A DNA stretch of 64,000 nt from Rhodoferax sp. Lineage in GTDB: Bacteria; Pseudomonadota; Gammaproteobacteria; Burkholderiales; Burkholderiaceae_C. Below the pieces are notes generated by a model, which had not been told where the DNA came from, did no database searches, and saw only the letters and a program-made list of their open reading frames with translations. The stretch is from positions 46,334 through 110,333 of the forward strand of contig JBBAPX010000009.1 in the NCBI GenBank assembly GCA_040400575.1. Direction: 5' to 3'. Of the stretch, positions 18,556 to 62,704 are shown in pieces. The position numbers and the translations under genes were made by a program. Numbering within the stretch: the stretch's first letter is position 1; each line of letters opens with the position of its first letter.

Positions 18556-18617
18556 GCAGGCTTCCTAGGGGTCGGTTCAATGTGTTGGGTCGACGATGCA
18601 AGACTTTTTACTTGCGT

Positions 18618-19235
18618 TTATACGCCCAAAGCCCGCGCCCGGACCAGGGCAGGGCGCGCCAATAGGCGGGCCAGATAGTCTTGTACGTGGGGCGCGTATT
18701 GCGCCCCCATGTCCAGACCGGGGGTGGTGCCCAAAAACAGGGCATAGCCAATGCAAATATCGGCGATGGTGAAGCGCCCGTCGCACAGAAACTCTCGGTC
18801 TTGCAAATGCGCGTTAAGCATGCGCAGTCGCGCCAGGTACCATTTTTTGTAGTCGTCTACGGCCTGGGGTAGTTTGCGCGGCGGGGGCTCCATGATCCCG
18901 TAGCGCAGCGCCACGGTTTGTGGAAAGGTGAGGGTGGCGTCGCTGTGAAACAGCCAATTGGTATAGCTGCCGAATTCCGGGTGGTCGGGCTTCAGGCCAA
19001 ATTCATGTTTGCCGTAGCGCTCGACCAAGTAGTGGCAGATACCGCTGGACTCAGTCATGTGCGTGTCGCCATCGACCAAATAGGGAATCGTGCCCAGCGG
19101 GTTCAAGCCCAGGAATTCTTTTTTGAATACACGCGGCGGAAAGGGCAGTACTTCTAACTCGTAGGGCAAGCCCATTTCCTCCAAGGCCCACAAGGGGCGC
19201 AGCGAGCGCGCGTCGACGCAGTGGTAGAGCTTCAT
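18618..19235 (-). CDS. Glutathione S-transferase family protein
   Basis: RSLRPLWALEE, NPLGTIP, TESSGI, FTIADI; ATGA overlap with carboxylase alpha. Confidence 0.9.
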   Translation of the reverse strand: MKLYHCVDARSLRPLWALEEMGLPYELEVLPFPPRVFKKEFLGLNPLGTIPYLVDGDTHMTESSGICHYLVERYGKHEFGLKPDHPEFGSYTNWLFHSDATLTFPQTVALRYGIMEPPPRKLPQAVDDYKKWYLARLRMLNAHLQDREFLCDGRFTIADICIGYALFLGTTPGLDMGAQYAPHVQDYLARLLARPALVRARALGV

Positions 19236-39613: not shown

Positions 39614-39655
39614 AAGCCCGGCTAAGACATCCTCTGATTTCAAAGAAAGCAAACC

Positions 39656-41026
39656 ATGGCCCGCAATACCCAGGTCAGCGCTGACCACCATGCTCCCCCC
39701 GTCACCCGTTTGCTCGCCGAACTGATCGCCCAACATCCTTCGCGCGGCTGGTCCGATGCGGTGGACCATGCGGCGCACCGTACTTTTCTCAACTGGCTGG
39801 GCTGCGCGGTGGGTGCGGCGCAGCATGAGTCGGTCAACGCGGCGCTGGCAGCAGTGCAGATGCTCCAACCTGCGCCCCAAGCCAGCCTGCTCGGGCGCAC
39901 CGAGAAAGTGGACATGGCTAGCGCTGCCTTGATCAACGGCATTAGCTCGCATACCTTTGACTTTGACGACACCCACCTCAAGACCATCATCCACCCGGCC
40001 GGGCCGGTGGCCTCGGCCTTGCTGGCTTTGGCTGAACACCAGGGCAGCAGCGGGCGCGCTTTAATCGACGCCTTGGTGCTGGGCATTGATGTGTCCTGCC
40101 GCATCGGCAACGCGATGTACCCGGACCACTACGACCGGGGCTGGCATATCACCGGTTCGACCGGCACGGTGGGGGCTGCTGCGGCGTGTGCGCGTTTGCT
40201 GGGCCTAGGGGTTGACCAAGCGGCCATGGCCCTGGGCATTGCCGCTTCGCAGCCCATTGGCATGCGCGAGCAGTTTGGCAGTATGACCAAGCCTTTTCAT
40301 CCGGGCGGCGCGGCGCGTGCCGGACTGATGTCGGCCTTGCTGGCTCAGCAAGGCTTTACCGCCAGCCCGCGCGCCCTGGAAGCGCCGCGCGGCATGATGC
40401 AGACCATCTCCACCAAAAACGACTGGTCCGAAATCACCGGCGAGCTTGGTCAGCGCTTTGAAATTGCGTTCAACACCTTTAAGCCTTTTGCCTGCGGTAT
40501 CGTGGTGCATCCGGGCATTGACGGCTGCGCGCAATTGCGGGCACAAGGCGTGCGCCCTGAGCAAATTGCATCCTTAGAAATCAAAGTGCATTCCTTGGTG
40601 CTGGAGCTCTGCGGCAAAAAAGAACCGGCCGATGGCCTGCAAGCCAAGTTCAGCATCTACCACGGTTGCGCTGCGGGTTTGATGTTTGGGTGTGCAGGCG
40701 AGGAGGAGTTTTCAGATGCCGTGGTTGCCCGGGCGGACATGGTGGCCTTGCGCCGCAAAGTGTTCGCCACCGTGGACGACAGCATTGACGAAGCCGCGGC
40801 CGACATCACGGCCGTGCTGCAAGATGGAAGCCGCGTACACCTGCGCGTGGAACACGCGATTGGCTGTGTGCAAAACCCGATGACCGATGCGCAGTTGGAG
40901 GCCAAATTCCACGGTTTGTCTGACCCGGTGATTGGCGCGGCGCACAGTGCGGACTTGATACAGGCCGCATGGGCTCTTGGCGATGCGCCTAGTGTGCAGG
41001 CACTGGTCGCCTTGGCACGCCCATAA
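39656..41026 (+). CDS. MmgE/PrpD family protein
   Basis: AALINGISSHTFDFDDTH, IHP, GWHIT, TKPFH, KPFACG, AKFS. Confidence 0.93.
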   Translation: MARNTQVSADHHAPPVTRLLAELIAQHPSRGWSDAVDHAAHRTFLNWLGCAVGAAQHESVNAALAAVQMLQPAPQASLLGRTEKVDMASAALINGISSHTFDFDDTHLKTIIHPAGPVASALLALAEHQGSSGRALIDALVLGIDVSCRIGNAMYPDHYDRGWHITGSTGTVGAAAACARLLGLGVDQAAMALGIAASQPIGMREQFGSMTKPFHPGGAARAGLMSALLAQQGFTASPRALEAPRGMMQTISTKNDWSEITGELGQRFEIAFNTFKPFACGIVVHPGIDGCAQLRAQGVRPEQIASLEIKVHSLVLELCGKKEPADGLQAKFSIYHGCAAGLMFGCAGEEEFSDAVVARADMVALRRKVFATVDDSIDEAAADITAVLQDGSRVHLRVEHAIGCVQNPMTDAQLEAKFHGLSDPVIGAAHSADLIQAAWALGDAPSVQALVALARP

Positions 41027-41041
41027 AACGTGCGTACTGCC

Positions 41042-42025
41042 ATGGACAAACCGCATATCGTCGTGCTGGGTGATGCCGAGCAAGCGATGCGCCGCTTGGG
41101 CGACTGGCAAGCCGTAGACCACGCTGCGCGGGTAAGCGTACACCACCTGCCGTTGCACGGTGCCGCGCTGCTGGCAGCCATGCAAGAGGCCGACGTTTTG
41201 GTGCTGTTGCGCGACCGCATCCCATTGGACGCGGCGACGATTGCGCAACTGCCGCGCTTGCGTTACCTGGTGTTTACCGGCTCGCGCAACACGACCTTGG
41301 ATGCGGCCGCCCTGGCAGCGCGCGGCATACCGGTAAGCCATACCGAATGGGGTCCATCCAAAGACAGTACCTGCGAACTCACCTGGGCGCTGATACTGGC
41401 TGCTACGCGCCAATTGACCGAGTACAGCGCCTTGCTGGCGCAAGGCCAATGGCGCGCAGCCGCACCGCAAGCCTTGCCCGGCGTGCTGCATGGCGAGGTA
41501 TTGGGCTTGGTGGGCTTGGGCGAGATCGGCAGACGCGTTGCGCTGGTCGGCAAGGCTTTGGGCATGCAGGTCCTGACCTGGAGCCCGAATATGACGTCCG
41601 AGCGCGCCGCTGTGCACGGCGTGCAGGCCGTGGTCCTGGATGAATTGCTTTCGCGCGCCAAAGTGCTGAGCTTGCATCTGGTGCCCTCGGCGACGACCCG
41701 TCATCTCATCAATGCCGAAAGCCTTGCGCAGATGCGGCCCGACAGCCTGCTGGTCAATACCTCGCGTGCTGCCTTGATAGATACCGGCGCATTGGTCCAC
41801 GCCTTGCGCGCTGGCCGTATCGGCATGGCGGCTCTCGATGTGTTCGATACCGAGCCCCTGCCTGCGGACAGCGTTTTGCGCGACTGCCCGCGTCTTTTGC
41901 TCACACCGCACCTGGGCTTTGTGGTGGAGCCGGTATACCAAACCTTTGCCTATGGCGTGCTGCAATGCCTGCAGGCTTGGCTGACCGGGCAGCCCTTGCC
42001 CCGGCTTTTGAAAGCGGTGACATGA
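41042..42025 (+). CDS. D-2-hydroxyacid dehydrogenase family (start 41030 or 41042)
   Basis: GLVGLGEIG, VNTSRA, ALDVFD.EP, LTPHLG. Confidence 0.92.
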   Translation: MDKPHIVVLGDAEQAMRRLGDWQAVDHAARVSVHHLPLHGAALLAAMQEADVLVLLRDRIPLDAATIAQLPRLRYLVFTGSRNTTLDAAALAARGIPVSHTEWGPSKDSTCELTWALILAATRQLTEYSALLAQGQWRAAAPQALPGVLHGEVLGLVGLGEIGRRVALVGKALGMQVLTWSPNMTSERAAVHGVQAVVLDELLSRAKVLSLHLVPSATTRHLINAESLAQMRPDSLLVNTSRAALIDTGALVHALRAGRIGMAALDVFDTEPLPADSVLRDCPRLLLTPHLGFVVEPVYQTFAYGVLQCLQAWLTGQPLPRLLKAVT

Positions 42026-49336: not shown

Positions 49337-49533
49337 GTTCCTATTTAGCGTGCCCAAGCCTGGCAACTGGCGCTACACCGAACCACTACCGACAAGCTGT
49401 TTGCGCCAAAGCGTTCAGCCCGGCTAGCTAAGTTTGGTGGTGAAGGCGGCAACGGAGAGTTCGGTAGGCCACATTTGCGAAGTGTTTTAAAGATATAAAA
49501 AGTATCGTTTGAATATTCCTTTGCATGGTTTTT

Positions 49534-49556
49534 GTTTGTAAAAAATTAATACAAAC
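49534..49556. promoter_or_regulatory. Inverted repeat, candidate operator for TonB-receptor operon
   Basis: GTTTGTA-N9-TACAAAC in AT-rich DNA about 60 bp upstream of ATG 49617. Confidence 0.5.
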
Positions 49557-49616
49557 TGCAACGCGTAAGGCCAGTCGGCGCTAGTTGGAACACCCCACAT
49601 TTACGCGAGAAAAAAA

Positions 49617-51779
49617 ATGAGACACATTAACTCCCCCTTCGCATTTATTGTTTTGGTTGCTGCTATTGGACAAGCGTACGCTCAATCCAACACCACACCG
49701 GTCCTAAGTAAAGTTGGCGAAGAGGTCAAAGCCGATGACGCTCAACTGCCCACGGTGACAATTACCACCGGTACCCGAAGCGCCAAGTCTGTGGACAAGA
49801 TTCCAGGTGCAGTTAACGTTGTTTCTAAAGAAGAACTCGCGCATACGCTTGCGCTCACTGAGGATGCTACTGCCGTGCTGGCCCGCACGGTTCCAGGCTA
49901 TGCGGAGTCTTCGCAGGCTATGGCAAACGCCGGTGAGAATCTGCGCGGACGCGTTGCATTGCGTCTTCTCGATGGTGTGCCACAGGGTTCGCCTTTGCGA
50001 GAGGGAAGTCGCAGCGCCAGTTTCACGGATATGGGGCTTGTTGGGCGCATTGAGGTTATCAACGGGCCATCCGCTTCAGAGGGTATCGGCGCGGCTGGCG
50101 GGATCATCAATTACATCTCTAAAGTGCCAACCAAGATGGGCGATGAAATCACCCTGATTTCGCGCTACACCAGCCAGTTTCGAGATGACAGCGCAGGGTG
50201 GAAGCTGGGACTCAACTATGCGCACAAGGATGATACCTTTGACCTTTTAGCTGGCATCTCGCAGATTGATCGCGGCATGAGTTATGACGCCAACGGGCGT
50301 CGTCAAGGAATGAATGCCAGCGGTTCCGTCTTGGACTCAACTGCCAACAATTACTTTGCTAAGGGTGGTTTCAATTTTGGTGCGAACAAGGAGCAGCGCT
50401 TACAGCTCACTGCGAGTAGTTTCAAGATCCTGGGCAAAGGGAACTACATGGCGCTCGACGGCGATCGAGACACGGGCGAAACCAATAGCGCCCAGCGTGG
50501 CCAACCGCTTGGAGCTAAAACTGAATTCAATGACTTTAAGCAGGTCAACCTGTCATATAAAAATGACGAATTTCTTGGGGGCACATTAACCGCTGATGCT
50601 TATATGGCAGATCAAGCGATGCGATTTGTGGCGGAATTAGATAGTGGCAAGCAGGACCCGCTTTTTGCACCCGTAGGTACTCTTATTGAGCAGTCAGAAA
50701 TTGACTCCAGAAAAAAGGGGCTTCGTACTTCTTGGACACGCCAAGATATTTTGGGGCTCAATGGGATGGAACTACGCGCTGGTCTCGATTTAGTGCAAGA
50801 CACTGCGGAACAGCGACTTGCACTTACCAATCGAACCTGGGCGCCGCCGGTGAAGTACAGCAGTGTCGCGCCTTATGCGCAACTTTCTTATGACATCGGG
50901 ATGCTCACGCTGAGCGGTGGATACCGCAGGGAGGGAGGGCAGCTCTTGGTTGACACGTTTACCACGATTTATGCGAACAACCGTTCCCTAGTGGAAGGTG
51001 GAACGCGCGATTACACGGTAGATTTACCCAACATTGGCGCCATAGTGCGTCTACCGCAAGGCTGGTCGGTTTTTGCGTCCTATGGCAAGGGATTTACGCT
51101 GCCCAACGTGGGCATTGCGCTCAGGAATATCAATCGTCCCAATGTGAAAGTCGCTGATATTGATGGTCTGGAAGCAGTGGTAGTGGATAACACTGAAATT
51201 GGCTTCAATTGGCGCGGTGCCATGGGAAATCTGGGCGCTTCAAGCTACCAGTCTAAGTCCGCTCTTGGTGCCAGTGTGTCGATTAGTTCTGTGACGAATG
51301 ACTTTGTGATTAACCGGGCGCCGGTGGACATTACCGGCTTTGAATTTTCTGGTGGGCTTAACCTCAACAAGCAGTGGAAAGCAAGCGCTCTTTACTCACA
51401 GATTCGTGGAAAAACTTCCTATAGTTCTAGCGGCGGCGCACTGGACAAGGAAATGGGTGTACTCGACATCAGCCCTGATAAGTTGGGTCTCTCGGTAACA
51501 TGGAAGCCAGTGGACAAAGCGGAAGTGACGCTAGGTGCAACACGATTATTCTCGCGTGACATCAATGTTGGGCGGAACAACGAGGAACATACTACGGGAT
51601 ACACACTTTTAGACTTGGGATCGAATTATGACTTTGGCCGTTATGGTCGACTTTCACTAGGTGTAGAAAACTTGGAAAATAGGCAATACATCTTGAGCTG
51701 GTCGCAGCTGCCTGGTTTCAAGAATTTCTTTGCAGGACGTGGCCGCGTAGTTTCAATTTCGCACGAAATTAAGTTCTAA
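49617..51779 (+). CDS. TonB-dependent outer-membrane receptor
   Basis: Signal peptide, TonB-box-like TVTIT, plug motif LRG...LLDGVP..RIEVINGP...G.GAAGGIINYISK, terminal Phe. Confidence 0.93.
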   Translation: MRHINSPFAFIVLVAAIGQAYAQSNTTPVLSKVGEEVKADDAQLPTVTITTGTRSAKSVDKIPGAVNVVSKEELAHTLALTEDATAVLARTVPGYAESSQAMANAGENLRGRVALRLLDGVPQGSPLREGSRSASFTDMGLVGRIEVINGPSASEGIGAAGGIINYISKVPTKMGDEITLISRYTSQFRDDSAGWKLGLNYAHKDDTFDLLAGISQIDRGMSYDANGRRQGMNASGSVLDSTANNYFAKGGFNFGANKEQRLQLTASSFKILGKGNYMALDGDRDTGETNSAQRGQPLGAKTEFNDFKQVNLSYKNDEFLGGTLTADAYMADQAMRFVAELDSGKQDPLFAPVGTLIEQSEIDSRKKGLRTSWTRQDILGLNGMELRAGLDLVQDTAEQRLALTNRTWAPPVKYSSVAPYAQLSYDIGMLTLSGGYRREGGQLLVDTFTTIYANNRSLVEGGTRDYTVDLPNIGAIVRLPQGWSVFASYGKGFTLPNVGIALRNINRPNVKVADIDGLEAVVVDNTEIGFNWRGAMGNLGASSYQSKSALGASVSISSVTNDFVINRAPVDITGFEFSGGLNLNKQWKASALYSQIRGKTSYSSSGGALDKEMGVLDISPDKLGLSVTWKPVDKAEVTLGATRLFSRDINVGRNNEEHTTGYTLLDLGSNYDFGRYGRLSLGVENLENRQYILSWSQLPGFKNFFAGRGRVVSISHEIKF

Positions 51780-51792
51780 GCGAATTAACTAC

Positions 51793-53100
51793 ATGCGCCT
51801 GTTTTCCAGGCTGATCATCGGCAGCGCCATCATATTCACGGCCTCTTGGGGTGTACCTACCCTGAATGCGCAAGACATGCAGGCGGGCGCGCTGTACAAG
51901 GAAAGTGGTGTGCGAGCCCGCCCCGCTAAAGACGCTTATCAGTCACTTTTGGCAGGAGCCACGCAAGACAAGGGCTATCTTGGTGGCGTGACCTTGGTAG
52001 CCCAAAAAGGGCAGGTGCTGCATTTGCAAAGTTTTGGTTACCGGGACTTGATGCGGCAGGACCCCATGTCGAGTGACGCGATCTTTCGCATTTACTCGAT
52101 GACCAAAAGTGTTGCCGCCGTAGCAGCCTTGGTTTTGGTTGACGATGGGAAACTCAATCTTGACGCGCCGGTGTCAGGGTATCTCCCAGAGTTTTTGTCG
52201 ATGCAGGTCATGGTAGGCGGGTCTGCTGATAGGCCGCAATTGAGACCAGCCCAGCGTCCGATTACCGCCCGGCAACTGCTAACGCATACCGCTGGCTTCG
52301 CCACGGGTGGCATCGGCATGGAAGAGGCATCCAAGTTGCTGGGACGTCAGGAGCTTCACAGGTCAACGGATCTGCGTGACTTTGCCGGACGGGCCGCACG
52401 CTCCCCGCTGCAAGCTGAGCCCGGCACGCGTTTTCTTTACGACGGTGTCAATTACCAGGTGCTGGGGCGACTGATTGAAGTGGTCAGTGGTTTGCCGCTG
52501 GATGTGTTTATGCAGGAGAGAATTTTCACACCACTGAAGATGTCAGACACTGGTTTTTCGGTATCGGCCGCCAAGCGCGCAAGGATTGTTGACATTACAA
52601 CCATGGGACCTGCCGGCCATTTGGTGCTAGCGGCAGGTCCTTCTGCGGCTAATCCCGGTGCCATGCTCAACCCCTATGTCAGTGCCGCAGGGGGCATGTA
52701 CTCCACGGCAAGCGATTTTTTGCGGTTTTGCCAGATGCTGCTTCAAGGGGGGCAACTGGACGGCGTTGTGGTTCTAAGTGCCAAATCGGTGCAAACAATG
52801 CTTTCCAATCAGCTGGTGCAATCAAATCCGGATCGCGGCCTACAGCCTACAGAATCGGGGCAGGGCGAAGGTCACGGTCTAGGTGGATGGGTGTTGCTTG
52901 AGGGGCATCCTCAGCGGCGCTCCGGATCCGTCGGATCTTTCGGCTGGTCAGGAGCCGCGTCAACCTACTTCATGATCGACCCCAAACAGCAGTTGGTGGC
53001 GATATTGTTGCTCCAACATTTGCCGGGGGATGCGAGTAATGAACTGCCCAAATTGCAGTTTCCGTTTTATCAGCGGGTCTACCAGACCCTCAGTCCATAA
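51793..53100 (+). CDS. Exported serine hydrolase, beta-lactamase fold (family VIII esterase-like)
   Basis: Signal peptide; FRIYSMTK (SxxK), LLTHTAG, F.Y, FGWSGAAST. Confidence 0.9.
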   Translation: MRLFSRLIIGSAIIFTASWGVPTLNAQDMQAGALYKESGVRARPAKDAYQSLLAGATQDKGYLGGVTLVAQKGQVLHLQSFGYRDLMRQDPMSSDAIFRIYSMTKSVAAVAALVLVDDGKLNLDAPVSGYLPEFLSMQVMVGGSADRPQLRPAQRPITARQLLTHTAGFATGGIGMEEASKLLGRQELHRSTDLRDFAGRAARSPLQAEPGTRFLYDGVNYQVLGRLIEVVSGLPLDVFMQERIFTPLKMSDTGFSVSAAKRARIVDITTMGPAGHLVLAAGPSAANPGAMLNPYVSAAGGMYSTASDFLRFCQMLLQGGQLDGVVVLSAKSVQTMLSNQLVQSNPDRGLQPTESGQGEGHGLGGWVLLEGHPQRRSGSVGSFGWSGAASTYFMIDPKQQLVAILLLQHLPGDASNELPKLQFPFYQRVYQTLSP

Positions 53101-53103
53101 TTC

Positions 53104-55323
53104 ATGGCACTCTCTCCCCGCAAACACGCGCATGCGTCAGCTCAACCCAATCTCCCAAAAATGAACCCAGACGATGATTTAGATCGCCCTCCAATGACCA
53201 AGACGGAATATAAATTTTCCCATGTCACCACAGGACGCTATTTGCCAACGCCCGGTAAGGCGCCGGGATGGCCATTCGCGGAGATCGGTCACTGGAAAAT
53301 GGATGTGCTTGGGACCGCCGATGACTGGATTCGGGAACTGCGCGACTGGCGCTCTGAACACTTAACGCGTATTGGCTACGACGACAGTAACTACCGTCGA
53401 CCCGCTCTACAGTGGGCGCAATCAAATTTTGTGCATGCACAAATGATGGTGGAAGATCGTTATTTCTTTGATTCCGCATCTGGAAAATACACCGTCGACC
53501 GCTATTTGGATGACCTTGAGTTGCGGTTTGGTGGTATCGACAGTGTGCTGATTTGGTACGTTTATCCCAATATCGGCATAGATGACCGCAACCAAACTGA
53601 CCTTGCCCATGACATGCCCGGTGGCCTAGCAGGCCTGCGCGAGGCGGTTCATGCCTTTCATCAACGTGGCGTGCGTGTTTTCTTACCCACTAAACCGTGG
53701 GACAAGGGGACTCGTGATCTGGGGCAACAAGACTGGCACGCTATCGCCAAAATCCTGAAGGCCGTAGGCGCAGATGGTATCAACGGTGACACCTACAACG
53801 GTGTGCCACGTGCCTTCTTCGATGCCTGTGAAGCAATTGGTTGCCCGGTGGTGTTACAGCCAGAGTCAACAATTTCGGCAGAGGAGGCGTTGATTTGGAA
53901 TGTGCAAAGCTGGGGCAAAAAAGTGCCAGCCGACGTGATCCCTAGCGTCGCCAAATTCAAATGGTTGGAGCCGCGCCACATGATCAATGTTGAAAATCGC
54001 TGGAGCCGCGACCGCACCAATGACTTTCAATTCATGTTTTTTAATGGCATCGGCTACAACGCTTGGGAAAACGTTTGGGGGATTTGGAATCAGCTGACCC
54101 CACGGGATGCGCAGAGCCTAAAACGCATCGCCGCATTGCAGCGGCAATTTGCCCCTTTGTTGGTGAGTCAGGAATGGCGGCCTTATTTTGCATGCTTGCA
54201 AACTGGCGTTTTTGCAAGTTTATTTCCCTCTGACAAGTGCCAATTGTGGACTATTGTCAATCGCAACGAATATGAAATTGAAGGCGAACAGTTGGTACTA
54301 CCGCACGAAGTCGGAGCGGAGTATTTTGACGTTTGGAGTGGGGTTAAGTTGCAAGCCCGAATGGATGCTGCAGGCAATGCGGTAATTAGTCTGAAGCTGG
54401 AGTCGCTGGGCTACGGCGCAGTTTTGCGTGTAGCGGCTGGTGCCGAGGTTCCCGGCTTAGTGGCTTATCAGGAGCGTGCTGCCCAATTCGCGATAACTCC
54501 GCTTCGTAGCCTGTCTTCTGCCTGGCACTCCCTGGCGCAGCACCTGGTACCTATCGAACGTACAACCGTCGCGGATGTACCACCCACAGGAATGCTTCTG
54601 ATTCCAGCCGCCGACTTTGATTTCGTGGTCAACGGGATTGAAGTCGAGGGACAAACTTGGGAAGGCTTGGACTTCCAATACCCATGGGAGAGTTGCGCGC
54701 GGCGCAGTCACCGCAAACGGATGCAATTGAGTGCGTTTTTCATTGACCAGACTCCGGTAACTAATGCGCAGTACAAAGCCTTTATGGTCGCTTCACGTTA
54801 TCAGCCGACTGATGGGCATAATTTTTTGCGAGACTGGATCAATGGTGCGCCGCTGAAGGGGTGGGACAACAAACCAGTGACTTGGGTTGGCATTGAGGAC
54901 GCTCGTGCCTATGCGACTTGGGCGGGTAAACGGTTACCGCACGAGTGGGAATGGCAATATGCCGCGCAAGGAGTGGACGGTCGGAACTATCCGTGGGGTA
55001 ATGCGTGGAGGGAGGATGCCGTTCCCAAAGTGAACCGTAGCCGAACCTTGCGGCCACCTGATGACGTACAAGCGCACCCACTAGGTGCCAGCCACTTTGG
55101 CGTTCTGGACCTGATCGGAAACGTCTGGCAGTGGACTGACGAATACCGCGATGACCATACCCGCGCGGCGGTCCTTCGTGGCGGAAGCAGTTTCCAGGCG
55201 CAAACCTCACACTGGTATTTCCCACAAGCGTATCGCCTAGACCAGCATGGGAAGTACCTACTGATGGCTCCCTGTAAAGACCGCTCGGGCACCATTGGTT
55301 TTAGGTGTGTCGTCGATGCGTGA
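53104..55323 (+). CDS. Multidomain protein: N-terminal putative glycoside-hydrolase-like barrel plus C-terminal FGE/SUMF1-fold domain (start may be 53161 or 53194)
   Basis: C-terminus VTNAQY, PVTWV...DA.AYA.WAGKRLP.E.EW, YPWG, DL.GNVWQWT, RGGS, IGFRC; N-terminus GADGINGDT. Confidence 0.75.
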   Translation: MALSPRKHAHASAQPNLPKMNPDDDLDRPPMTKTEYKFSHVTTGRYLPTPGKAPGWPFAEIGHWKMDVLGTADDWIRELRDWRSEHLTRIGYDDSNYRRPALQWAQSNFVHAQMMVEDRYFFDSASGKYTVDRYLDDLELRFGGIDSVLIWYVYPNIGIDDRNQTDLAHDMPGGLAGLREAVHAFHQRGVRVFLPTKPWDKGTRDLGQQDWHAIAKILKAVGADGINGDTYNGVPRAFFDACEAIGCPVVLQPESTISAEEALIWNVQSWGKKVPADVIPSVAKFKWLEPRHMINVENRWSRDRTNDFQFMFFNGIGYNAWENVWGIWNQLTPRDAQSLKRIAALQRQFAPLLVSQEWRPYFACLQTGVFASLFPSDKCQLWTIVNRNEYEIEGEQLVLPHEVGAEYFDVWSGVKLQARMDAAGNAVISLKLESLGYGAVLRVAAGAEVPGLVAYQERAAQFAITPLRSLSSAWHSLAQHLVPIERTTVADVPPTGMLLIPAADFDFVVNGIEVEGQTWEGLDFQYPWESCARRSHRKRMQLSAFFIDQTPVTNAQYKAFMVASRYQPTDGHNFLRDWINGAPLKGWDNKPVTWVGIEDARAYATWAGKRLPHEWEWQYAAQGVDGRNYPWGNAWREDAVPKVNRSRTLRPPDDVQAHPLGASHFGVLDLIGNVWQWTDEYRDDHTRAAVLRGGSSFQAQTSHWYFPQAYRLDQHGKYLLMAPCKDRSGTIGFRCVVDA

Positions 55324-57154
55324 AGTTCCCCATATTGAGTTGCATGGCTTACTTGGACAGGCGCTCATTGCAAGTAAAAGCGGGAGGTTGTCTCGTTTCA
55401 TCGTTGGTGCGCAAAGCCCAGCGATCGCAATGTTCGCGCCGGAGCCGGTTAGCCGCAATTTGGAAGGTGATTGGTATGGCGAGCACGCAGGTAAATGGCT
55501 TTATGCGGCGGCCCGTGCAGCCAAGAGAAGCGGCGACCGAGGTCTGTCGGACAATGTGCAGGCGGTAGCCGACTACTTGGTCCGCATGCAAAGCAGTGAC
55601 GGCTACTTGGGAACCTATGCGCCTGTACGCCGGTTTACCCGTAAATCTTCGCCTGGGCCCGTGACATGGGATGGTGCGCCAGAAAAGCGAACCTGGGATA
55701 TCTGGGTCCACAGCTACATGCTTTTAGGCTTGCTGGAAGTCCATAAGAATTTTGCCCGACCCAGCTACCTATTGGCAGCCTGCAAGATAGCCGACTTGTG
55801 TTGGAATATCCTGCATGAGGGGGATATCAACATCACCGAACTTGGGAATCACCACGGGCTTTCGGCCACCGTATTGTTAGACGCTGCAGTGGAATTGTTC
55901 ATGGCGACAAGTGAACCCAGGCATCTGGCACTGGCTGAACTCATTTTGCAGCAAGCCGATCAGCGGCCAGAGTTGGCATTGTTGCGCAAGTCGCTGGGCG
56001 GGGCGGACGCCTCTGAAATCTCAGCGGGTAAAGCCTACCAACTCTGCTGGAATCTAGTGGGTTTGGCCAAACTCTACAAAGTAACTGGCGATCCTCGCTA
56101 TTTGCAGGCCGTGCTGAATATATGGACAAGTATTCGCCTGCATCACCTGACGCTTGGCGGAGGCCCTTGGGGCGGGGTGGGACTGCGTTCGCGCGAGGTA
56201 TTTAACCATCACAGTGTTTTCAGTCCCACGGGCTACGTGGAAACCTGCTCTATCCTCGCCTGGATCCAGCTAAATCGGGAGTTGCACTTAATCACTGGCG
56301 AGGCGAAGTACGCAGAAGAAATCGAGTGTTCTGCTTACAACGACTTGCTCGGTGCCATGGACCCGAATGGTGAGGACTGGTGTTATTACTCTTTCCCCAA
56401 TGGTCGCCGTGTTTACACCACCTATTGGCGTTGCTGCAAGTCAAGTGGCGCTATGGCACTAGAGGAGTTACCTGGCGCTGCCTATGTGCAGACCGATGAA
56501 CGGACGCTGACGCTTAACTTATATGGGCCTAGTACGGCTTCATTTTGGTTTGAAGACGCTGGCAAGGTGAACTTTCAGCAGCACACCGCCTATCCCTATG
56601 ACGGATACGTTCAAATTACGGTAGATCCGGCCCGAGCGGCTAGATTCCTGATTTGTGTCCGCATTCCGTCATGGGCGCACGGCGCAAGTGTCCAAGTCAA
56701 TTCAATCAGTTGCCCAGGCAATGTCACTGCGGACGCGTACTTCGCGATAGACCGACTTTGGCGGTCTGGTGACATCTTGGCCTTAAATTTTCCAATGGAG
56801 CCAGTATTACATCGGCGTTCGAGCTTCAGCTTACAAGAATCTAAGGCGCCGGATGGCGCTGCTGTCATACAAGAGGTGATGCACCTAGATTACTGTGCGA
56901 TAACCCGAGGACCCTTGGTGTTTTCGACGGGTCTTATTGATGGATATAAAAGCGCAGAGACGGTGCGACTCGCGGCAGAGTCGGCAAGTGAGGTCCTGGA
57001 GTTGTTGGCAAGTGCCGGTGCCGATGACCCGCCGGCAATTCGTCTGCATTTGGCAGAACGATCGGCGCTGACCTTTGAGCCTTATTTTTCTGCTGGTGGA
57101 CGCGCAGACGGTACTTGGCGGCTGACTTGGATGCAATTGGCACCCAGTATTTAG
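55316..57154 (+). CDS. GH127-family (beta-L-arabinofuranosidase/aceric acid hydrolase-like) cysteine glycosidase
   Basis: GKWLYAA, DGYLG, GKAY, ETC and CC metal/nucleophile motifs, YPYDG, RIPSWA, RGPLV; start re-called to 55316. Confidence 0.85.
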   Translation: MREVPHIELHGLLGQALIASKSGRLSRFIVGAQSPAIAMFAPEPVSRNLEGDWYGEHAGKWLYAAARAAKRSGDRGLSDNVQAVADYLVRMQSSDGYLGTYAPVRRFTRKSSPGPVTWDGAPEKRTWDIWVHSYMLLGLLEVHKNFARPSYLLAACKIADLCWNILHEGDINITELGNHHGLSATVLLDAAVELFMATSEPRHLALAELILQQADQRPELALLRKSLGGADASEISAGKAYQLCWNLVGLAKLYKVTGDPRYLQAVLNIWTSIRLHHLTLGGGPWGGVGLRSREVFNHHSVFSPTGYVETCSILAWIQLNRELHLITGEAKYAEEIECSAYNDLLGAMDPNGEDWCYYSFPNGRRVYTTYWRCCKSSGAMALEELPGAAYVQTDERTLTLNLYGPSTASFWFEDAGKVNFQQHTAYPYDGYVQITVDPARAARFLICVRIPSWAHGASVQVNSISCPGNVTADAYFAIDRLWRSGDILALNFPMEPVLHRRSSFSLQESKAPDGAAVIQEVMHLDYCAITRGPLVFSTGLIDGYKSAETVRLAAESASEVLELLASAGADDPPAIRLHLAERSALTFEPYFSAGGRADGTWRLTWMQLAPSI

Positions 57155-57155
57155 A

Positions 57156-58058
57156 TCAGGGGAGTGGTCGTCCGGTCACTTCAGCCTGGCGTAATGCGAC
57201 ATTTTGGGCTTCGCGCAGGAATGCCTTAACAAGCCTGATTCGGATGGTGGAGCGCGACCAAAGAACCCCGATGCGCCTTGGATCGAAGGGCTCCGGCAGC
57301 AGTAATTTGATGAGGTTCAGACCTTCCGGCCAAGGCCGTGCCCAATCAGGTACCAGAGAAACGCCCAAGCCACGGTCTACCATGACCGCGATGGCGTTGA
57401 GCGCGTTCATCTCAAAGCGCTCTTGGGGGACGATCCCAACCATCCGCAGGTATCGATCCGCTTGATGCCCACCCCACTGGTTGCGGTCATACCGGATGAA
57501 GGGTTCGGTGGCCAAGAGATCGTGTGGATCGCGACCTTTCATGCTCTTGGGTGCCAATACGACCAACGGTTCCTCGCGAAGTACCAACCATTCAACTCTT
57601 TTGGAAAGCGTAAAAGGGGCCTCCAAAACAATGGCTGCATCTAGTTCGCCGCTCTCTACCGAGGGGTACAAATCTGCGGAATATCCGGGCTTGATATAGA
57701 CCTTGATACGGGGGTGTCGACGTACCATGCCAGCCAAAATATCCGGCAAAATTCCAGTTAATGCATTCGTTCCAGCGCCAATTCTGAGTTCGCCAAAGGT
57801 GTCATTGTCATTGGCAGCTGAATGCAGATCGGTGACATCTCTGAGCAGATTTCGCGCACGCTCCAAGATCCGAGTGCCTGCCTCGGTAATGGACACTGTC
57901 CGCCCTGCTCTAGTGAGTAAGGGAGCGCCAATTTCCCTCTCTAAGGTACGTATTTGTTGAGCCACCGTGGCCGGCGTAATGTTGAGAAGGCGTGCCGCTG
58001 ATGCCATAGATCCATGGTCAACCACCGCCACAAAGGTATACAAAAATTGGGTATCCAT
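57156..58058 (-). CDS. LysR-family transcriptional regulator
   Basis: HGSMASAARLLNITPATVAQQIRTLEREIG HTH; G.GVSLVP. Confidence 0.95.
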   Translation of the reverse strand: MDTQFLYTFVAVVDHGSMASAARLLNITPATVAQQIRTLEREIGAPLLTRAGRTVSITEAGTRILERARNLLRDVTDLHSAANDNDTFGELRIGAGTNALTGILPDILAGMVRRHPRIKVYIKPGYSADLYPSVESGELDAAIVLEAPFTLSKRVEWLVLREEPLVVLAPKSMKGRDPHDLLATEPFIRYDRNQWGGHQADRYLRMVGIVPQERFEMNALNAIAVMVDRGLGVSLVPDWARPWPEGLNLIKLLLPEPFDPRRIGVLWSRSTIRIRLVKAFLREAQNVALRQAEVTGRPLP

Positions 58059-58094
58059 CGTTCATCAGAGCCTCGGGGTAAACAAAAAGTATTG

Positions 58095-58112
58095 TCTAAA
58101 ACTACTATTAGA
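58095..58112. promoter_or_regulatory. Dyad in divergent LysR/citE-like promoter
   Basis: TCTAA-N8-TTAGA in the 109-bp AT-rich intergenic region. Confidence 0.4.
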
Positions 58113-58167
58113 TGGTTTTTATTTTTAATCAATTTCACCATACTGTGGGCCACACTGCAACTTCTTT

Positions 58168-59037
58168 ATGCGAAGCAAACTATTCGTTCCTGCCACGCGC
58201 GCTGATCTGTATTCCAAAGCGTTGGCCAGCCAGGCGGATGCCATTTCATTCGATCTGGAGGACTCAGTAGCCGAAGTTAGCAAGCAAACTGCACGGGAGC
58301 GCGTGCGCGAATTCTTGATGTCTGAATCGGCACGCTCGAGTTCTAAAACGCTCATCGTGCGCGTTAACGCAATGCGTACGCCGCATTTTGAGGCGGATGT
58401 CTTTGCCGTGGTCCAGACCGGGCTTGCGATCTTGAACATTCCAAAGTGTGAGTCAGGGCAACAAGTTCAAGATGGCCTGCAGGTCATCGCTTGCGCGGAA
58501 GCCTTGAACCGTAATTCCAGCCCGGTGTCCATTCTGGCTAACGTTGAAACGCCAAAGGCTTTGCGCTGTGCCTTCGATATTGCCAGTGCGGACGCCCGAA
58601 TCGTCGGGCTTCAGATAGGTTATGCCGACTTGTTTGAACCGCAAGGAATCAGGAGAGACGATGCGCTGAATGTTCATGCTGCGTTATTTGCGCTTCGAAT
58701 GGCTGCGGCTGAAGCCGGCGTCTTCGCATATGACGGTGCATTTCCCGATTTGCAGGACGCTAGCGGATTTCGTGCGGAGTGTGAGATGGCTAGAAAAATG
58801 GGTTTTATAGGAAAAACTTGTATTCATCCAGGTCAGATTGAGACGGTAAACCAAATCTTCGGCCCAGCCCAACACGAGATTGATTTTGCATTGCGGGTAC
58901 TGGCCGCCGTAGGAGATACGAAAAATATGAACCTTGGCGCGTTCCAATTGGAGGGAAGAATGATTGATAGGCCGTTTATCCAAAGGTCCAGAAGAATTGC
59001 CGATTTAGCGCAAAAGATGGGGATATTGTCCCTATGA
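58168..59037 (+). CDS. CitE-like CoA-ester lyase (HpcH/HpaI aldolase/citrate lyase family)
   Basis: RSKLFVPA, FDLEDS, VRVN, PK.ES, VET, GYADL, GKTCIHPGQI, GRMID.P. Confidence 0.92.
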   Translation: MRSKLFVPATRADLYSKALASQADAISFDLEDSVAEVSKQTARERVREFLMSESARSSSKTLIVRVNAMRTPHFEADVFAVVQTGLAILNIPKCESGQQVQDGLQVIACAEALNRNSSPVSILANVETPKALRCAFDIASADARIVGLQIGYADLFEPQGIRRDDALNVHAALFALRMAAAEAGVFAYDGAFPDLQDASGFRAECEMARKMGFIGKTCIHPGQIETVNQIFGPAQHEIDFALRVLAAVGDTKNMNLGAFQLEGRMIDRPFIQRSRRIADLAQKMGILSL

Positions 59038-60236
59038 GCGAAACTTTGAGCAAGGACGAGGCGCCGCGTGGGCCGTTGACTGGTATCCGCGTGCTGGATC
59101 TTAGCGCCTACATAGCTGGCCCTTACGGTTGCACGCTACTTGCTGACATGGGTGCAGAAGTAATCAAGATTGAACCACCCAGCGGTGACAACCTTCGCCG
59201 ATATCCGTCGACCTTAGAAGCCGAAAGCCGGGCTTTTCTTGGAATTAACCGTAGCAAGCGCGGATTGGTTTTGGACCTGAAAAAAGAACAGGGTTTGCTG
59301 GTCCTCGATCGCATGCTCGGCTCGGCCGACGTACTGGTTCACAATTTCCGACCCTCTGTTGCGCCGCGCTTGGGTATCGCCTATGAGAGATTCCAGGCCA
59401 GTCATCCGCGGCTGATCTATTGCGTGGTCAATGGTTATGGCGAGTCAGGCCCTATGAAAGACTATGCTGGCTATGACCAGGTTTTGCAGGCAATGACCGG
59501 AATTTGCGCTATGCAGGGCAAGCACGGGCAACCACCAGAAATTGTGTACGGCTCTGTGGTGGATTACTACGCTGCAGCAATGGTCGCAAGCGGTGTCAGT
59601 GCCGCACTGTTTGAGCGCGAGCGAAACAATCGTGGCCAATATGTTGGCGTCTCCTTGCTAAGAAGTGCGTTGGCTATGCAATCGGCGCGGTTCATTTGGG
59701 CTGAAAGTGAAAGCCGTGATATCGGTCGCGACATGCGCTCTGGAGGGGTCACGGGTCTGCATCCGGCGCGAGAGGGCTTCATCTATCTATCCGCCAACAC
59801 GCCGCATTTTTGGCGCGCACTTTGTGAAAAAGTCGGACTCAGCTCTTTGGCCGACGATCCGCGGTATGACAGCGTGCGCAAGCGCGCCGATTGTGCCAAC
59901 GAAATCTTGCCTCAGCTGCACAATGCCTTGCTGTCCCATACCGCTCTCGAGTGGGAACAGATATTTGCGCAGGATGTACCCAGTGCGGCCGCACGTTCAA
60001 TTGCTGATATGTTCGACCACCCGCAAGTGCTTGCCGAGGAAATGGTGACTAATCTGGAGCATCCGTCGGTTGGGCGCTACAAGGGCCTTACCAAGGCAAT
60101 CAAATTTAGTAAAACGCCGGGCCCTTCCCCGTTCGCTGCACCCACCCTCGGTGAGCATTCAGACGATGTGTTAGCCGAGTGCGGGTATTCGCATAATGAA
60201 ATTGCGCAATTGCGCCAACAGGGCGTCATCAAGTGA
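59034..60236 (+). CDS. Class III (CaiB/BaiF) CoA-transferase
   Basis: VLDLSAYIAGP, GAEVIKIE, NRSKR, HNFRP, GYD, catalytic-Asp region VVDYYAA, APTLGEH; ATGA overlap. Confidence 0.93.
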   Translation: MSETLSKDEAPRGPLTGIRVLDLSAYIAGPYGCTLLADMGAEVIKIEPPSGDNLRRYPSTLEAESRAFLGINRSKRGLVLDLKKEQGLLVLDRMLGSADVLVHNFRPSVAPRLGIAYERFQASHPRLIYCVVNGYGESGPMKDYAGYDQVLQAMTGICAMQGKHGQPPEIVYGSVVDYYAAAMVASGVSAALFERERNNRGQYVGVSLLRSALAMQSARFIWAESESRDIGRDMRSGGVTGLHPAREGFIYLSANTPHFWRALCEKVGLSSLADDPRYDSVRKRADCANEILPQLHNALLSHTALEWEQIFAQDVPSAAARSIADMFDHPQVLAEEMVTNLEHPSVGRYKGLTKAIKFSKTPGPSPFAAPTLGEHSDDVLAECGYSHNEIAQLRQQGVIK

Positions 60237-62704
60237 TTCAACTAAGGCCGTGTCAATTTATGAAAGGTATTTTCTACCTCGCATTGTCTTTGCGCAGAAC
60301 TGCCGTGGCCCTATGGGTAGCTGGTGTTGGCATGGGTGTGTGCTTGCCTACATTGTCTGCCCATGCAGGCAATCTTGTGACCCTGAAGACGGGTACGCTG
60401 GGGCCTGCGCCTGGCAATGGGCTGGTACGCACTTTGGCTGCTTTGGATGGCCAGCTCCTCGTGCTGGGACAGGATGCAAGTTGGGAGTTCGATGAAGCTA
60501 GCCAGTCCTGGAAGAAGGTCGACTGGCACGCGCAACAACCGATACAAGCCTTAGCATTGGACAAACGGCAGGCTTATGTTTTTCTTGGCACTGAGCGCGA
60601 TGGAGTGGCGCAGCGGGTTCAAAAACTGACATTAGAGTTGGGCCGCTTAGGCTCACTACCTATGCCTTCCTTGCCCATGCACTTGCTTGATTTACAGGCG
60701 GCGATGATGGGCCCAGTCCTTTACGTTGTAGGCAACGATAAGGATGGAACTTTTACGCAGTTCGCATTGGACACGAGTGCAGCGCAACCCCATTGGACCG
60801 CTCATCGCGTAACGCAGCTCAAGGGAAAACCGACCTCGCTCGTCGGTCAGCGTTCCGCTTTGTATGCCACGGTGAGGCCGGCCGGTGGTGCTAGAGACCA
60901 CCTGTGGCAATGGACGCCATCGGGCGGATGGATCGAAAAAAATGCACTATCTGGCACTGTGGTTCAACATGCCGCGCGGCCAGCCGGTCAGGCGCACGTC
61001 ATCTATTTAGTCCAACCGTTAGCTGCGCTTTCTCCTGCTCCTGCAATGATGATGTATCACACCATTACGGGCTCGTGGGCGACATTGGATGATCCCAAGG
61101 CCCTAGGGGCTTTTGATGGCACAGCCTGGCGCAATGGCATCGCTTGGCAGCACCCTGCCAGCGCAGGCGGAGTTGAAATTGACTTCGCAGAAATCGAGTC
61201 TGGGAAACTACTGCTTACCTGGCTGGATTGGGTGGTCATTGTTTTCTACCTGACGGCTATGTTAGGTATGGGGCTGTATTTTTACCTGCGTGAAAAGCGT
61301 ACTTCAACCGCTGATTTTTTCGTCGGCGGACGTTCTATCCCCTACTGGGCGGCAGGCGTCAGCTTGTATGCAGCGAACACCAGCTCAATTAGTTACATTG
61401 CCATTCCAGCCAAGGCGTTTGAAACCAACTGGCAATACCTAACCAACAACCTAATCGCTGTACTTGGTTTGATGTTTGTTGCGATTTGGATAGTACCGGT
61501 CTTGCGGCGACTCGATTTGATGTCAAGCTTTCAATACCTTGAAACCCGCTTTCATCCCGTCATACGCACACTGGCAAGTGCTTTGTTTATGGCCGTACAA
61601 ATTGGTAGTCGGATGAGCATTATTCTTTTCTTGCCGTCTTTAGCAATCGCTACGATGACTGGTATTGACGTCATATGGAGCATACTGATCATGGGCGTGT
61701 TCACCATGATCTATACCGCTTTGGGCGGTATGAAAGCAGTCGTCTGGACCGATGTAGTCCAGCTGGTGGTCAAAATGGGAGGAATATTTTTTACTATCGG
61801 ATTTGTCATCTATATGCTCGATGGCGGCGCGGGTGAATTGATAAAAGTAGCCCAGGCCGAAGAGAAGACAAAGCTATTTGATTTCAGCTGGGACCTGACC
61901 AAGGCCACCGTTTGGGGCTTTTTGTTCCTCGTGCTATTTGACGTGGTTCTCACCTTTCCAAAGGACCAGGTGCTGATGCAGCGTGTGCTGTCCACGCGTT
62001 CGGACAAGGATGCAGAACGGTCTGTTTGGACATTTGCCGCCATCATGATTCCAGGGGGATTTTTATTCTATGGCGTTGGTACTGCCTTGTATGTCTACTA
62101 CAAGAATCACCCCGAGAGGATGAACCCCTTGCTCACCATCGATGCGACATTCCCACTATTCATCGCTGCGGAGTTACCTATGGGCGTGCGTGGTCTGATC
62201 GTAGCGGGAATTCTGGCTGCTGCGATGGCGACGCTGTCGAGCATCATGAACAGTGTCGCTACGCTTGCGTCGGTAGATTTTTATGAAAAATGGGCGAAAA
62301 ATCCAACACCAAAATCTAGCGTTCATTTTGCTGAGGTGATGACCGTGGTGGCAGGCATTCTTGGAATGGGTGTCGCACTGTTATTGACGCGCTACGACAT
62401 CCATTCCTTATTTGATGTATCGATTGAGTTAGCTGGTCTATTGGGTGGCGGATTCGCTGGCGCCTACACCTTGGGCATGTTTACAAGGCGTGCTAATTGG
62501 CAGGGCGTTGCAATCGGTGTCGGCGTCAGTATCACATTGACCACTGTAGCTTGGTTCATGAACCTGGTACACCCATATTTTTATCTCGCTATTTCAATCT
62601 TTGTTTGCATCGCAGTGGGCTATATCGCCAGCTGGATGTTCCCGGCGCCATCTCCAAAGTCTCTCGAAGGTCTGACCATTTATTCTAAAAATTCTTCGCT
62701 TTGA
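60233..62704 (+). CDS. Sodium:solute symporter (SiaT-like) with exported N-terminal Kelch-like beta-propeller (start 60233 or 60260)
   Basis: Signal peptide ending AHA, about 290 aa beta-rich domain, then LDWVVIVFY..FFVGGR..WAAGVS, YLETRF, GGMKAVVWTD, DQ..MQR, AAAMATLSS.MNS. Confidence 0.85.
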   Translation: MIQLRPCQFMKGIFYLALSLRRTAVALWVAGVGMGVCLPTLSAHAGNLVTLKTGTLGPAPGNGLVRTLAALDGQLLVLGQDASWEFDEASQSWKKVDWHAQQPIQALALDKRQAYVFLGTERDGVAQRVQKLTLELGRLGSLPMPSLPMHLLDLQAAMMGPVLYVVGNDKDGTFTQFALDTSAAQPHWTAHRVTQLKGKPTSLVGQRSALYATVRPAGGARDHLWQWTPSGGWIEKNALSGTVVQHAARPAGQAHVIYLVQPLAALSPAPAMMMYHTITGSWATLDDPKALGAFDGTAWRNGIAWQHPASAGGVEIDFAEIESGKLLLTWLDWVVIVFYLTAMLGMGLYFYLREKRTSTADFFVGGRSIPYWAAGVSLYAANTSSISYIAIPAKAFETNWQYLTNNLIAVLGLMFVAIWIVPVLRRLDLMSSFQYLETRFHPVIRTLASALFMAVQIGSRMSIILFLPSLAIATMTGIDVIWSILIMGVFTMIYTALGGMKAVVWTDVVQLVVKMGGIFFTIGFVIYMLDGGAGELIKVAQAEEKTKLFDFSWDLTKATVWGFLFLVLFDVVLTFPKDQVLMQRVLSTRSDKDAERSVWTFAAIMIPGGFLFYGVGTALYVYYKNHPERMNPLLTIDATFPLFIAAELPMGVRGLIVAGILAAAMATLSSIMNSVATLASVDFYEKWAKNPTPKSSVHFAEVMTVVAGILGMGVALLLTRYDIHSLFDVSIELAGLLGGGFAGAYTLGMFTRRANWQGVAIGVGVSITLTTVAWFMNLVHPYFYLAISIFVCIAVGYIASWMFPAPSPKSLEGLTIYSKNSSL

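Follow-up and report, generated by a model that had tools for sequence, protein, structure and literature searches.

A candidate mobile gene module of Rhodoferax sp. for the breakdown of an esterified, carboxylate-bearing and possibly ribose-containing glycoside

The window analysed here, a 64,000-nt stretch of contig JBBAPX010000009.1 of the Rhodoferax sp. assembly GCA_040400575.1 (positions 46,334 to 110,333 of the forward strand), was examined by listing of open reading frames (ORFs) and by profile searches against Pfam and NCBIfam, and individual proteins were compared with PDB sequences. Eight ORFs at 49617-62704 of this window, each falling into its expected family, form a cluster that may serve the import and breakdown of an esterified, carboxylate-bearing glycoside (Table 1). 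The coordinates and family assignments which an initial annotation had given to these eight genes were all borne out by the ORF and profile searches. Two plus-strand operons were distinguished. The first encodes a TonB-dependent outer-membrane receptor (TBDT), a PF00144 esterase, a protein joining a TIM barrel to an FGE-sulfatase-fold domain (TIM-FGE) and a GH127-like protein; the second encodes a CitE-like lyase, a CoA-transferase and a Kelch-propeller sodium/solute symporter (Kelch-SSS). The gene of a LysR-type regulator lies between them on the minus strand, transcribed towards the GH127-like gene and away from citE. Successive junctions consist of gaps of 13 nt and 3 nt, followed by overlaps of 8 nt (ATGCGTGA, where the ATG at 55316 overlaps the TIM-FGE stop), 4 nt (ATGA) and 4 nt (GTGA). 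With a G+C content of 53.1% versus 58.5% for the genome, the island was among the lowest 2% of 13-kb windows, which is consistent with recent acquisition.

Table 1. Genes and upstream blocks of the Rhodoferax sp. cluster (positions within the 64,000-nt window)
Feature	Position	Strand	Size	Domains and remarks
Upstream block 1, candidate LysR operator and promoter	49497..49558	+		before TBDT operon
TonB-dependent outer-membrane receptor, signal peptide	49617-51779	+	720 aa	Plug PF07715, barrel PF00593
Exported family-VIII (beta-lactamase-fold) carboxylesterase	51793-53100	+	435 aa	PF00144, 232 bits
Cytoplasmic TIM-FGE protein	53104-55323	+	739 aa	TIM barrel and beta-sandwich (~50-510) fused to FGE-sulfatase-fold domain (538-736), PF03781
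Cytoplasmic GH127-like protein	55316-57154	+		PF07944, PF20736; ATG start, longest ORF from TTG 55295
LysR-type regulator	57156-58058	-		PF00126, PF03466
Upstream block 2	58084..58145	+		LysR-citE intergenic region
CitE-like beta-hydroxyacyl-CoA lyase	58168-59037	+		PF03328 (131 bits), PF15617
Family-III (CaiB/Frc/SUGCT-type) CoA-transferase	59034-60236	+		PF02515, 380 bits, positions 1-366 of 366
Signal peptide and periplasmic six-bladed Kelch propeller fused to SiaT-like Na+/solute symporter	60233-62704	+	823 aa	

The two upstream blocks matched without gaps over 62 nt, with a score of 48 compared to 18.8 ± 3.3 (maximum 30) for shuffled sequences, and both half-motifs of the block were confined to these two sites in the 3.09-Mb genome. 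The sharing of a genome-unique block by both operons constitutes direct sequence evidence of their common regulation. Orthologues of the LysR regulator, 60-82% identical, were present in related proteobacterial loci, and a LacI-type regulator took its place in Opitutaceae. Upstream of the TBDT operon no Fur box scored above background, and a scan for sigma-70 promoters and terminators returned no more sites than shuffled sequences did.

The distribution of these genes was assessed by scanning one genome per species. At least 570 loci were found to encode a TIM-FGE protein; the best 80 were analysed, and counts were taken from the 55 of them with full 10-kb flanks, which came from Xanthomonadales, Burkholderiales, Sphingomonadales and Opitutaceae. 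TIM-FGE, a family-III CoA-transferase and a regulator were present in all 55, the TBDT in 54 (orthologues 50-65% identical), GH127 in 53 and Kelch-SSS in 52; lower counts were obtained for the esterase (50), a ribokinase (48) and CitE (47). Of the eight loci apparently without CitE, seven end at the symporter gene, and in those clades CitE is encoded just past the edge of the fetched DNA. Carriers of TIM-FGE include Stenotrophomonas, Lysobacter, Rhodanobacter, Roseateles, Sphingomonas and Opitutaceae, from soil, rhizosphere and freshwater.

Gene order differed between clades. Compared to the Rhodoferax sp. arrangement (TBDT-esterase-TIM-FGE-GH127, LysR on the opposite strand, CitE-CoA-transferase-SSS), that of Xanthomonadales reads CitE-SSS-LysR-TBDT-esterase-ribokinase-TIM-FGE-GH127-CoA-transferase, and further distinct arrangements were seen in Sphingomonadales and in Opitutaceae. 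In Xanthomonadales and Sphingomonadales the two arms are interleaved, with the CoA-transferase gene inside the glycosidase operon and that of CitE beside the symporter. As gene order varies between clades, the association reflects more than inherited gene order. The clustering of functions, seen in practically all related loci of sufficient length, is far beyond chance. The earlier proposal that both arms make up one unit was thus supported by the gene-neighbourhood search, in four lineages and in rearranged orders, as well as by the shared 62-nt block; rare co-occurrence of the arms, which the initial annotation had named as grounds for refutation, was not what the search showed.

The module evidently travels as a unit and has spread horizontally, judging from phylogeny and genomic context. 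In a maximum-likelihood tree of TIM-FGE, Verrucomicrobia were placed among metagenome-assembled genomes of Burkholderiales, and Sphingomonas within a gamma/beta group. The full set was also found on the mobilizable plasmid pSFD01 of Sphingopyxis sp. FD7, adjoining an IS6 element.

At the cell surface, the TBDT scored far below every NCBIfam equivalog cut-off, its best family matches being siderophore/heme receptors, and its comparison with the PDB gave only a weak match, to PhuR. The N-terminus of the PF00144 protein was judged by eye to be signal-peptide-like. Its best PDB relatives were 7pp3, EstU1 (4ivi) and Est-Y29 (E 1e-41 to 4e-60; 1e-59 to 4e-60 for 7pp3 and EstU1), and its best NCBIfam match was the methyl acetate hydrolase AcmB, below cut-off. 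In loci where PF00144 was missing, a PF00756 esterase (Roseateles, Paucibacter and Opitutaceae) or a type-B carboxylesterase (Sphingopyxis and Sphingomonas mali) was encoded instead. The interchange of three unrelated esterase families at a single step argues that the esterase step is real.

At the inner membrane, residues ~330-808 of the Kelch-SSS protein matched the SiaT structure 5nv9 (4e-80), and its periplasmic N-terminal domain was modelled as a six-bladed Kelch propeller (pLDDT 91), with Kelch domains as top fold matches. A Kelch propeller fold joined to a SiaT-like symporter is the overall architecture of SiaF sialic-acid transporters. Residues were compared with SiaT by alignment and are given in SiaT numbering. 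The equivalent of R135 was invariant in 62 orthologues and that of S60 was also kept; T58, T63, Q82 and F78 were replaced by N, S, N and Y, respectively, and these replacements were conserved in 54-62 of the 62 (54-58 for those of T58, T63 and Q82). Conserved replacement of binding-site residues suggests a carboxylate cargo different from sialic acid. Neither the window cluster nor the related loci yielded nanA, nanK or nanE in profile searches.

The GH127-like protein scored 133.7 bits against PF07944 (gathering threshold 24.9), and the PF20736 middle domain was also present. Its PDB matches were 6ex6, 4qjy, 5mqo and 3wkw, the solved members scoring 52-104 bits. When it was aligned by phmmer to 3wre, 6ex6 and 4qjy, the Glu of its SREVF motif and its ETC and RCC motifs fell on E322, E338/C340 and C417/C418 of HypBA1, which provide the acid/base Glu, the Zn site and the Cys nucleophile. 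The Glu/Cys/Zn set is thus intact. Glycosidase activity on a 1,2-cis furanoside or an anhydro-galactoside would be expected of a GH127 member; since GH127 chemistry suits 1,2-cis furanosides, an alpha-D-ribofuranoside is a conceivable substrate. The initial annotation had instead counted aceric acid, from pectic rhamnogalacturonan II (RG-II), among its speculative substrates. This lead traces back to the aceric-acid hydrolase model NF049879, the only GH127 model in NCBIfam, on which the protein reached 114.8 bits against a cut-off of 950. The protein was also no nearer to BT1003 (5mqo) than to ordinary beta-L-arabinofuranosidases, and a D-ribose product would be a misfit with aceric acid or RG-II side chains, which leaves the proposal with no specific support.

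The second glycosidase-like protein, TIM-FGE, had a single Pfam match over its 739 residues, to FGE-sulfatase PF03781 (118 bits, residues 538-736), and its first 500 residues matched no Pfam family even at E ≤ 10. An AlphaFold2 model of the N-terminal part, of moderate quality (pLDDT 64), consisted of a TIM barrel and a beta-sandwich, for which Foldseek returned GH13, GH27 and GH30 enzymes as best but loose fold matches (TM 0.3-0.45). Residues D224, D229, E254 and E322 were invariant or nearly so, distant homologues included. For the N-terminal domain family, 2348 representative clusters were counted, of which 509 lie at E ≤ 1e-30, and the FGE domain was fused to it in 35 of 40 sampled members. 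In the FGE-fold domain, which resembles ToxD, CalU17 and EgtB, the Cys pair is missing: in RGGSSFQAQTSHWYF, Gln and His stand where the human and bacterial FGE motif has the two catalytic Cys after RGGS. No sulfatase gene was found in any locus. Both this protein and the GH127-like protein have N-termini that read as hydrophilic in the sequence, consistent with the cytoplasm and with the earlier statement that the two glycosidase-like proteins lack signal peptides.

Distant relatives and paralogues of TIM-FGE were also encountered. On a plasmid of Spirosoma sp. KNUC1025 (NZ_CP087141.1:100367-102541), a relative of 33% identity is encoded directly after a GH28 gene, in a locus that also has GH36, ThuA, Gfo/Idh/MocA, ROK and SIS genes; its position beside GH28 and GH36 supports a carbohydrate role for the whole TIM-FGE family. 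In the Sphingomonas sp. ERG5 locus (L070), a second TIM-FGE paralogue of 34% identity lies at the cluster end (303-2369, minus strand), and another TBDT, a Ca2+-dependent PI-PLC-like protein and a GPH-type sugar transporter are encoded downstream (15310-20313).

A ribokinase gene, present in the operons of all four clades, is located directly upstream of the TIM-FGE gene in most loci. The in-operon kinases scored 253-268 bits on TIGR02152 (cut-off 299.65) and keep N14, D16, K43, N46, E143 and D255, the ribose-contact residues of E. coli RbsK; the copy on pSFD01 is named ribokinase by PGAP. The presence of this kinase in the operons of most relatives makes D-ribose a likely product. The Rhodoferax sp. 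window and about eight other loci have no ribokinase in the cluster. The only ribokinase homologue of the Rhodoferax sp. genome shares 65% identity with the in-operon kinases of its relatives and is encoded on another contig (C3:251646-258449), adjoining an IUNH-type nucleoside hydrolase and divergent from a BMP-lipoprotein/ABC nucleoside-type transporter. The absence of sugar kinase, dehydrogenase and nan genes noted in the initial annotation thus holds within the window cluster but does not extend to sugar kinases in the relatives, given the in-operon ribokinase of 48 of the 55 full-flank loci.

For the CoA branch, scores of the CitE-like protein on NCBIfam models were below cut-off (TIGR01588, 187 versus 443; RipC, 158 versus 375), and its PDB matches (1sgj, 3qll, 8khl and 4l9y) placed it about equally distant from CitE, RipC and malyl-CoA lyases. 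The CitE motifs FDLEDSV, RVN, VETP, GYADL and KxCIHPxQ could be read in its sequence. Lyases of the CitE type act on a 3-hydroxyacyl-CoA and require its alpha-carbon to be that of an acetyl or propionyl unit. No CitD, CitF or CitC/G/X was found in the cluster or in related loci, so this is not the citrate lyase complex CitDEF; nor was a MaoC or enoyl-CoA hydratase found in the window cluster or related loci, so this is not the Ict-Ich-Ccl itaconate route. Lack of a hydratase implies that the substrate must be a hydroxy-acid rather than itaconate. The CoA-transferase matched 10uh, human SUGCT (9br6, 5e-53) and YfdE in the PDB, and its distance from formyl-CoA transferase was about the same as from human SUGCT and from YfdE; the nearest solved CoA-transferases use dicarboxylates. 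A second family-III lineage, 27-31% identical, replaces it in Opitutaceae.

Gene content, compartment signals, catalytic motifs, co-localisation, non-orthologous displacement and the shared upstream block were the observations from which a scheme was assembled. According to it, the TBDT would carry the compound through the outer membrane and the periplasmic carboxylesterase would strip an acyl or methyl ester. The Kelch-propeller/SiaT-like symporter would then bind the de-esterified carboxylate glycoside for Na+-coupled import, and in the cytoplasm the GH127-like enzyme, with its Cys nucleophile and 1,2-cis furanoside chemistry, would break the glycosidic bonds together with TIM-FGE. Freed D-ribose would be phosphorylated by ribokinase, encoded in the operon of most relatives and elsewhere in the Rhodoferax sp. 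genome. The family-III CoA-transferase would make the CoA thioester of the freed C4-C6 hydroxy-di- or tricarboxylic acid (malate, citramalate, 3-hydroxy-3-methylglutarate (HMG) or citrate type), and retro-aldol cleavage of this thioester by the CitE-like lyase would yield acetyl-CoA and a 2-oxo acid or aldehyde. LysR would drive both operons via the shared operator. We infer in which order the steps run, which enzyme frees ribose, and what acid and ester are involved.

The eight genes very probably form one pathway. D-ribose is a rather probable product, and a free hydroxy-acid is, to much the same degree, the expected substrate of the CoA branch. For the whole ordered scheme, that of a mobile catabolic module for an imported, esterified, carboxylate-bearing, D-ribose-containing glycoside, we estimate a probability of roughly 0.5. 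From the import and CoA-cleavage model of the initial annotation it keeps the single unit, the esterase step and the logic of compartments, and it departs from that model on aceric acid and on the absence of a sugar kinase beyond the window.

Several points weigh against this scheme. We know of no O-ribofuranosidase in GH127, and the word "ribofuranosidase" did not occur in the literature searched. The score of the operon kinase lies just under the TIGR02152 equivalog cut-off, and the lack of an in-cluster ribokinase in the window and in about eight other loci means that ribose could be peripheral. The propeller matched neither the NanM hidden Markov model (HMM) nor the Pfam Kelch models, and even at E ≤ 10 Pfam gave nothing for it. 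The tie between the TIM domain and glycosidases is at the level of fold, as predicted by a mediocre model (pLDDT 64), and a profile comparison of this domain with a GH13 protein in hhalign was not significant (1% probability); the "GH-like" label given to it in the initial annotation is consequently sustained by fold resemblance but not by profile comparison. For the CoA-dependent end of a glycoside pathway no precedent was found, and no known natural compound fitting all parts could be named. Candidate substrates that were considered and did not fit all parts comprise aceric acid and RG-II chains, capsule units of 3-deoxy-D-manno-octulosonic acid (Kdo) and ribose, bacillithiol, GlcN-malate, glucosyl- and mannosyl-glycerate, HMG- or malyl-acylated plant glycosides, citrate siderophores, modified tRNA nucleosides, methanopterin fragments and ribose-bearing cyanobacterial exopolysaccharide.

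Among the alternatives, salvage of an ulosonic or branched sugar acid without ribose survives best, and we consider it unlikely. This reading, which takes in that of the initial annotation and its variants, supposes uptake of an acidic oligosaccharide from plants or bacteria (fragments with O-acetylated aceric acid, Dha or Kdo, e.g. beta-L-Araf-Dha of RG-II). The GH127-like protein would here act as a beta-L-arabinofuranosidase or aceric-acid hydrolase, the propeller would serve as mutarotase, and CoA activation and cleavage would fall on the sugar acid itself. Such a route would agree with the SiaF-like combination of Kelch propeller and SiaT-like symporter (PMC8461474), with the retained carboxylate-binding Arg, with the inclusion of beta-L-arabinofuranosidases and BT1003 in GH127, and with the dicarboxylates taken by the nearest CoA-transferases. 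It leaves the in-operon ribokinase of four clades unexplained, however, and is opposed by the score on the aceric-acid-hydrolase model (115 versus 950), the missing NanM HMM match, the changed SiaT contact residues T58, T63, Q82 and F78, and the lack of an aldolase, dehydratase or nan gene. In addition, these acids give no CitE-type 3-hydroxyacyl-CoA without extra enzymes.

The in-operon ribokinase would be accounted for if the substrate were not an O-glycoside but an acidic N- or C-riboside (a modified nucleoside or a natural product of nucleoside type), one cytoplasmic enzyme being a ribosidase and the acidic side chain of the aglycone being removed and cleaved as CoA ester. The neighbours of the genome's only ribokinase, an IUNH nucleoside hydrolase and a BMP/ABC nucleoside transporter, point the same way, as does the likeness of the FGE-fold domain to ToxD, CalU17 and EgtB, proteins with small heterocycles or thiols as ligands. 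Nevertheless, neither GH127 enzymes nor GH-like TIM barrels are known as nucleosidases, genes for base catabolism were present in no locus, and the LacI regulators and GH13-like gene of Opitutaceae point to sugars, leaving this reading improbable as well. Two independent neighbouring operons, one for glycoside import and hydrolysis and one for uptake and cleavage of an organic acid of the citramalate, malate or itaconate type, might be read from the separate transcription units on either side of LysR in the window, and elsewhere pairs of CoA-transferase and CitE do process free acids, in the itaconate and malyl-CoA pathways; co-localisation in four lineages despite rearrangement, the interleaved arms of Xanthomonadales and Sphingomonadales, the shared upstream block and a single inner-membrane transporter serving both arms make such independence very unlikely. 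Least likely is the recycling of a foreign citrate-based or ester-linked siderophore by TBDT uptake, esterase linearisation and citrate-type cleavage, which is suggested by the siderophore/heme receptor matches of the TBDT, a Fes-like PF00756 esterase in some loci and the CitE-like lyase, but for which the TBDT scores lie far under cut-offs, a Fur box, reductase and ABC importer are missing, the regulators are of LysR or LacI type, and the two glycosidase-like proteins and the ribokinase would be without a role.

The scheme of glycoside breakdown was compared with described systems. TonB-dependent carbohydrate utilisation (CUT) loci were reportedly described by Blanvillain et al. in 2007 from Xanthomonas and related Proteobacteria. 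A clustered TBDT, inner-membrane transporter, carbohydrate-active enzymes and regulator, as in CUT loci, were all found at the Rhodoferax sp. locus, where the TBDT, transporter, glycoside-degrading enzymes and LysR or LacI regulator lie in one locus in the same bacterial groups. Unlike CUT loci, with their sugar isomerases, dehydrogenases and aldolases, the present locus ends in a CoA-transferase and a CitE-like lyase, and its glycosidase-like proteins are cytoplasmic, one of them belonging to the unclassified TIM-FGE family.

The CoA-transferase and lyase pair resembles those of Ict-Ich-Ccl/RipABC, SmtAB-Mcl (malate) and SUGCT-CLYBL, in which a family-III CoA-transferase likewise adjoins a CitE-like lyase, but it comes without a hydratase, scores below equivalog cut-offs and lies within a glycoside-uptake locus. 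SiaF is a fusion of the NanM mutarotase with a sialic-acid transporter of the ST5/SSS type (Severi et al. 2021, PMC8461474). The Kelch-SSS protein shares with it the signal peptide, six-bladed Kelch propeller, SiaT-like SSS and carboxylate-binding Arg, and differs in the propeller without NanM or Kelch HMM match, in the replaced T58, T63, Q82 and F78, in the lack of a nan context and in its occurrence in Proteobacteria, where SiaF is rare. Comparators within GH127 were the HypBA1 beta-L-arabinofuranosidase (3wkw), the BT1003 aceric-acid hydrolase (5mqo) and the Zobellia 3,6-anhydro-D-galactosidases (PMC5698469). These enzymes and the Rhodoferax sp. protein have in common the catalytic domain, the middle domain, the Glu that serves as acid/base and a Zn-binding Glu/Cys3 set to which the Cys nucleophile belongs. 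The Rhodoferax sp. protein is in contrast a distant, cytoplasmic member in a context of ribokinase and CoA enzymes.

No description of this gene set was found in the literature searched, in keeping with the initial annotation, which knew of no characterised pathway containing it, and protein database names were generic. In kind, the locus is a TBDT-dependent glycoside utilisation locus; what is new about it is that it ends in CoA-dependent steps and includes the TIM-FGE enzyme and a Kelch-symporter of non-sialic type. Tentatively, it could represent the first glycoside route to end in D-ribose and a hydroxy-acid cleaved by CoA-transferase and CitE, pointing to an undescribed, environmentally common, ribose-containing acidic metabolite and bringing with it a new TIM-FGE glycoside-hydrolase family, a GH127 enzyme of new specificity (possibly a ribofuranosidase) and a non-sialic Kelch-symporter. 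Occurrence of the module in hundreds of genomes, and its movement between phyla and on a plasmid, suggest a selectable nutrient outside current pathway maps. Knowledge of the substrate would assign functions to the TIM-FGE fusions, which annotation pipelines call "formylglycine-generating enzyme", as well as to a divergent GH127 clade, a Kelch-SSS clade related to sialic-acid transporters and an orphan CoA-transferase/CitE pair. The shared candidate LysR operator would be usable as a biosensor for the screening of extracts.

Additional genes accompany the module in some relatives. A GH13-like gene and a BT1-type MFS transporter are added in some Opitutaceae loci. In ten loci (L012, at 11938-14997, and L010, L013, L023, L034, L042, L050, L065, L074 and L076), a gene of ~1000 codons lies between TIM-FGE and GH127; its product, with a ThuA-like domain and cytochrome c at the C-terminus, may contribute an optional oxidative step, perhaps on a 3-keto-glycoside. 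On pSFD01 (L082:8498-15959), genes for four dehydrogenases, an isocitrate lyase/PEP mutase family protein and a large TBDT lie on the opposite strand beside the cluster, and beyond these are an L-idonate 5-dehydrogenase and a LacI regulator, maybe another sugar-acid locus.

Within the window, a weak Glutamine-II riboswitch-like match was located at 53392-53444, inside the TIM-FGE coding region (21.5 bits versus a gathering threshold of 33, E 0.15); it is most likely due to chance, and no other riboswitch that could serve as a ligand clue was found in the window, nor any in six related loci. The flanks of the cluster are unrelated to it, with an ABC transporter, accompanied by a ModE-like regulator, and a TctC receptor upstream, and Smr and RadC downstream. 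A TctC receptor, an MmgE/PrpD-family protein and a D-2-hydroxyacid dehydrogenase are encoded in a row at 38642-42025 and may form a separate small organic-acid operon.

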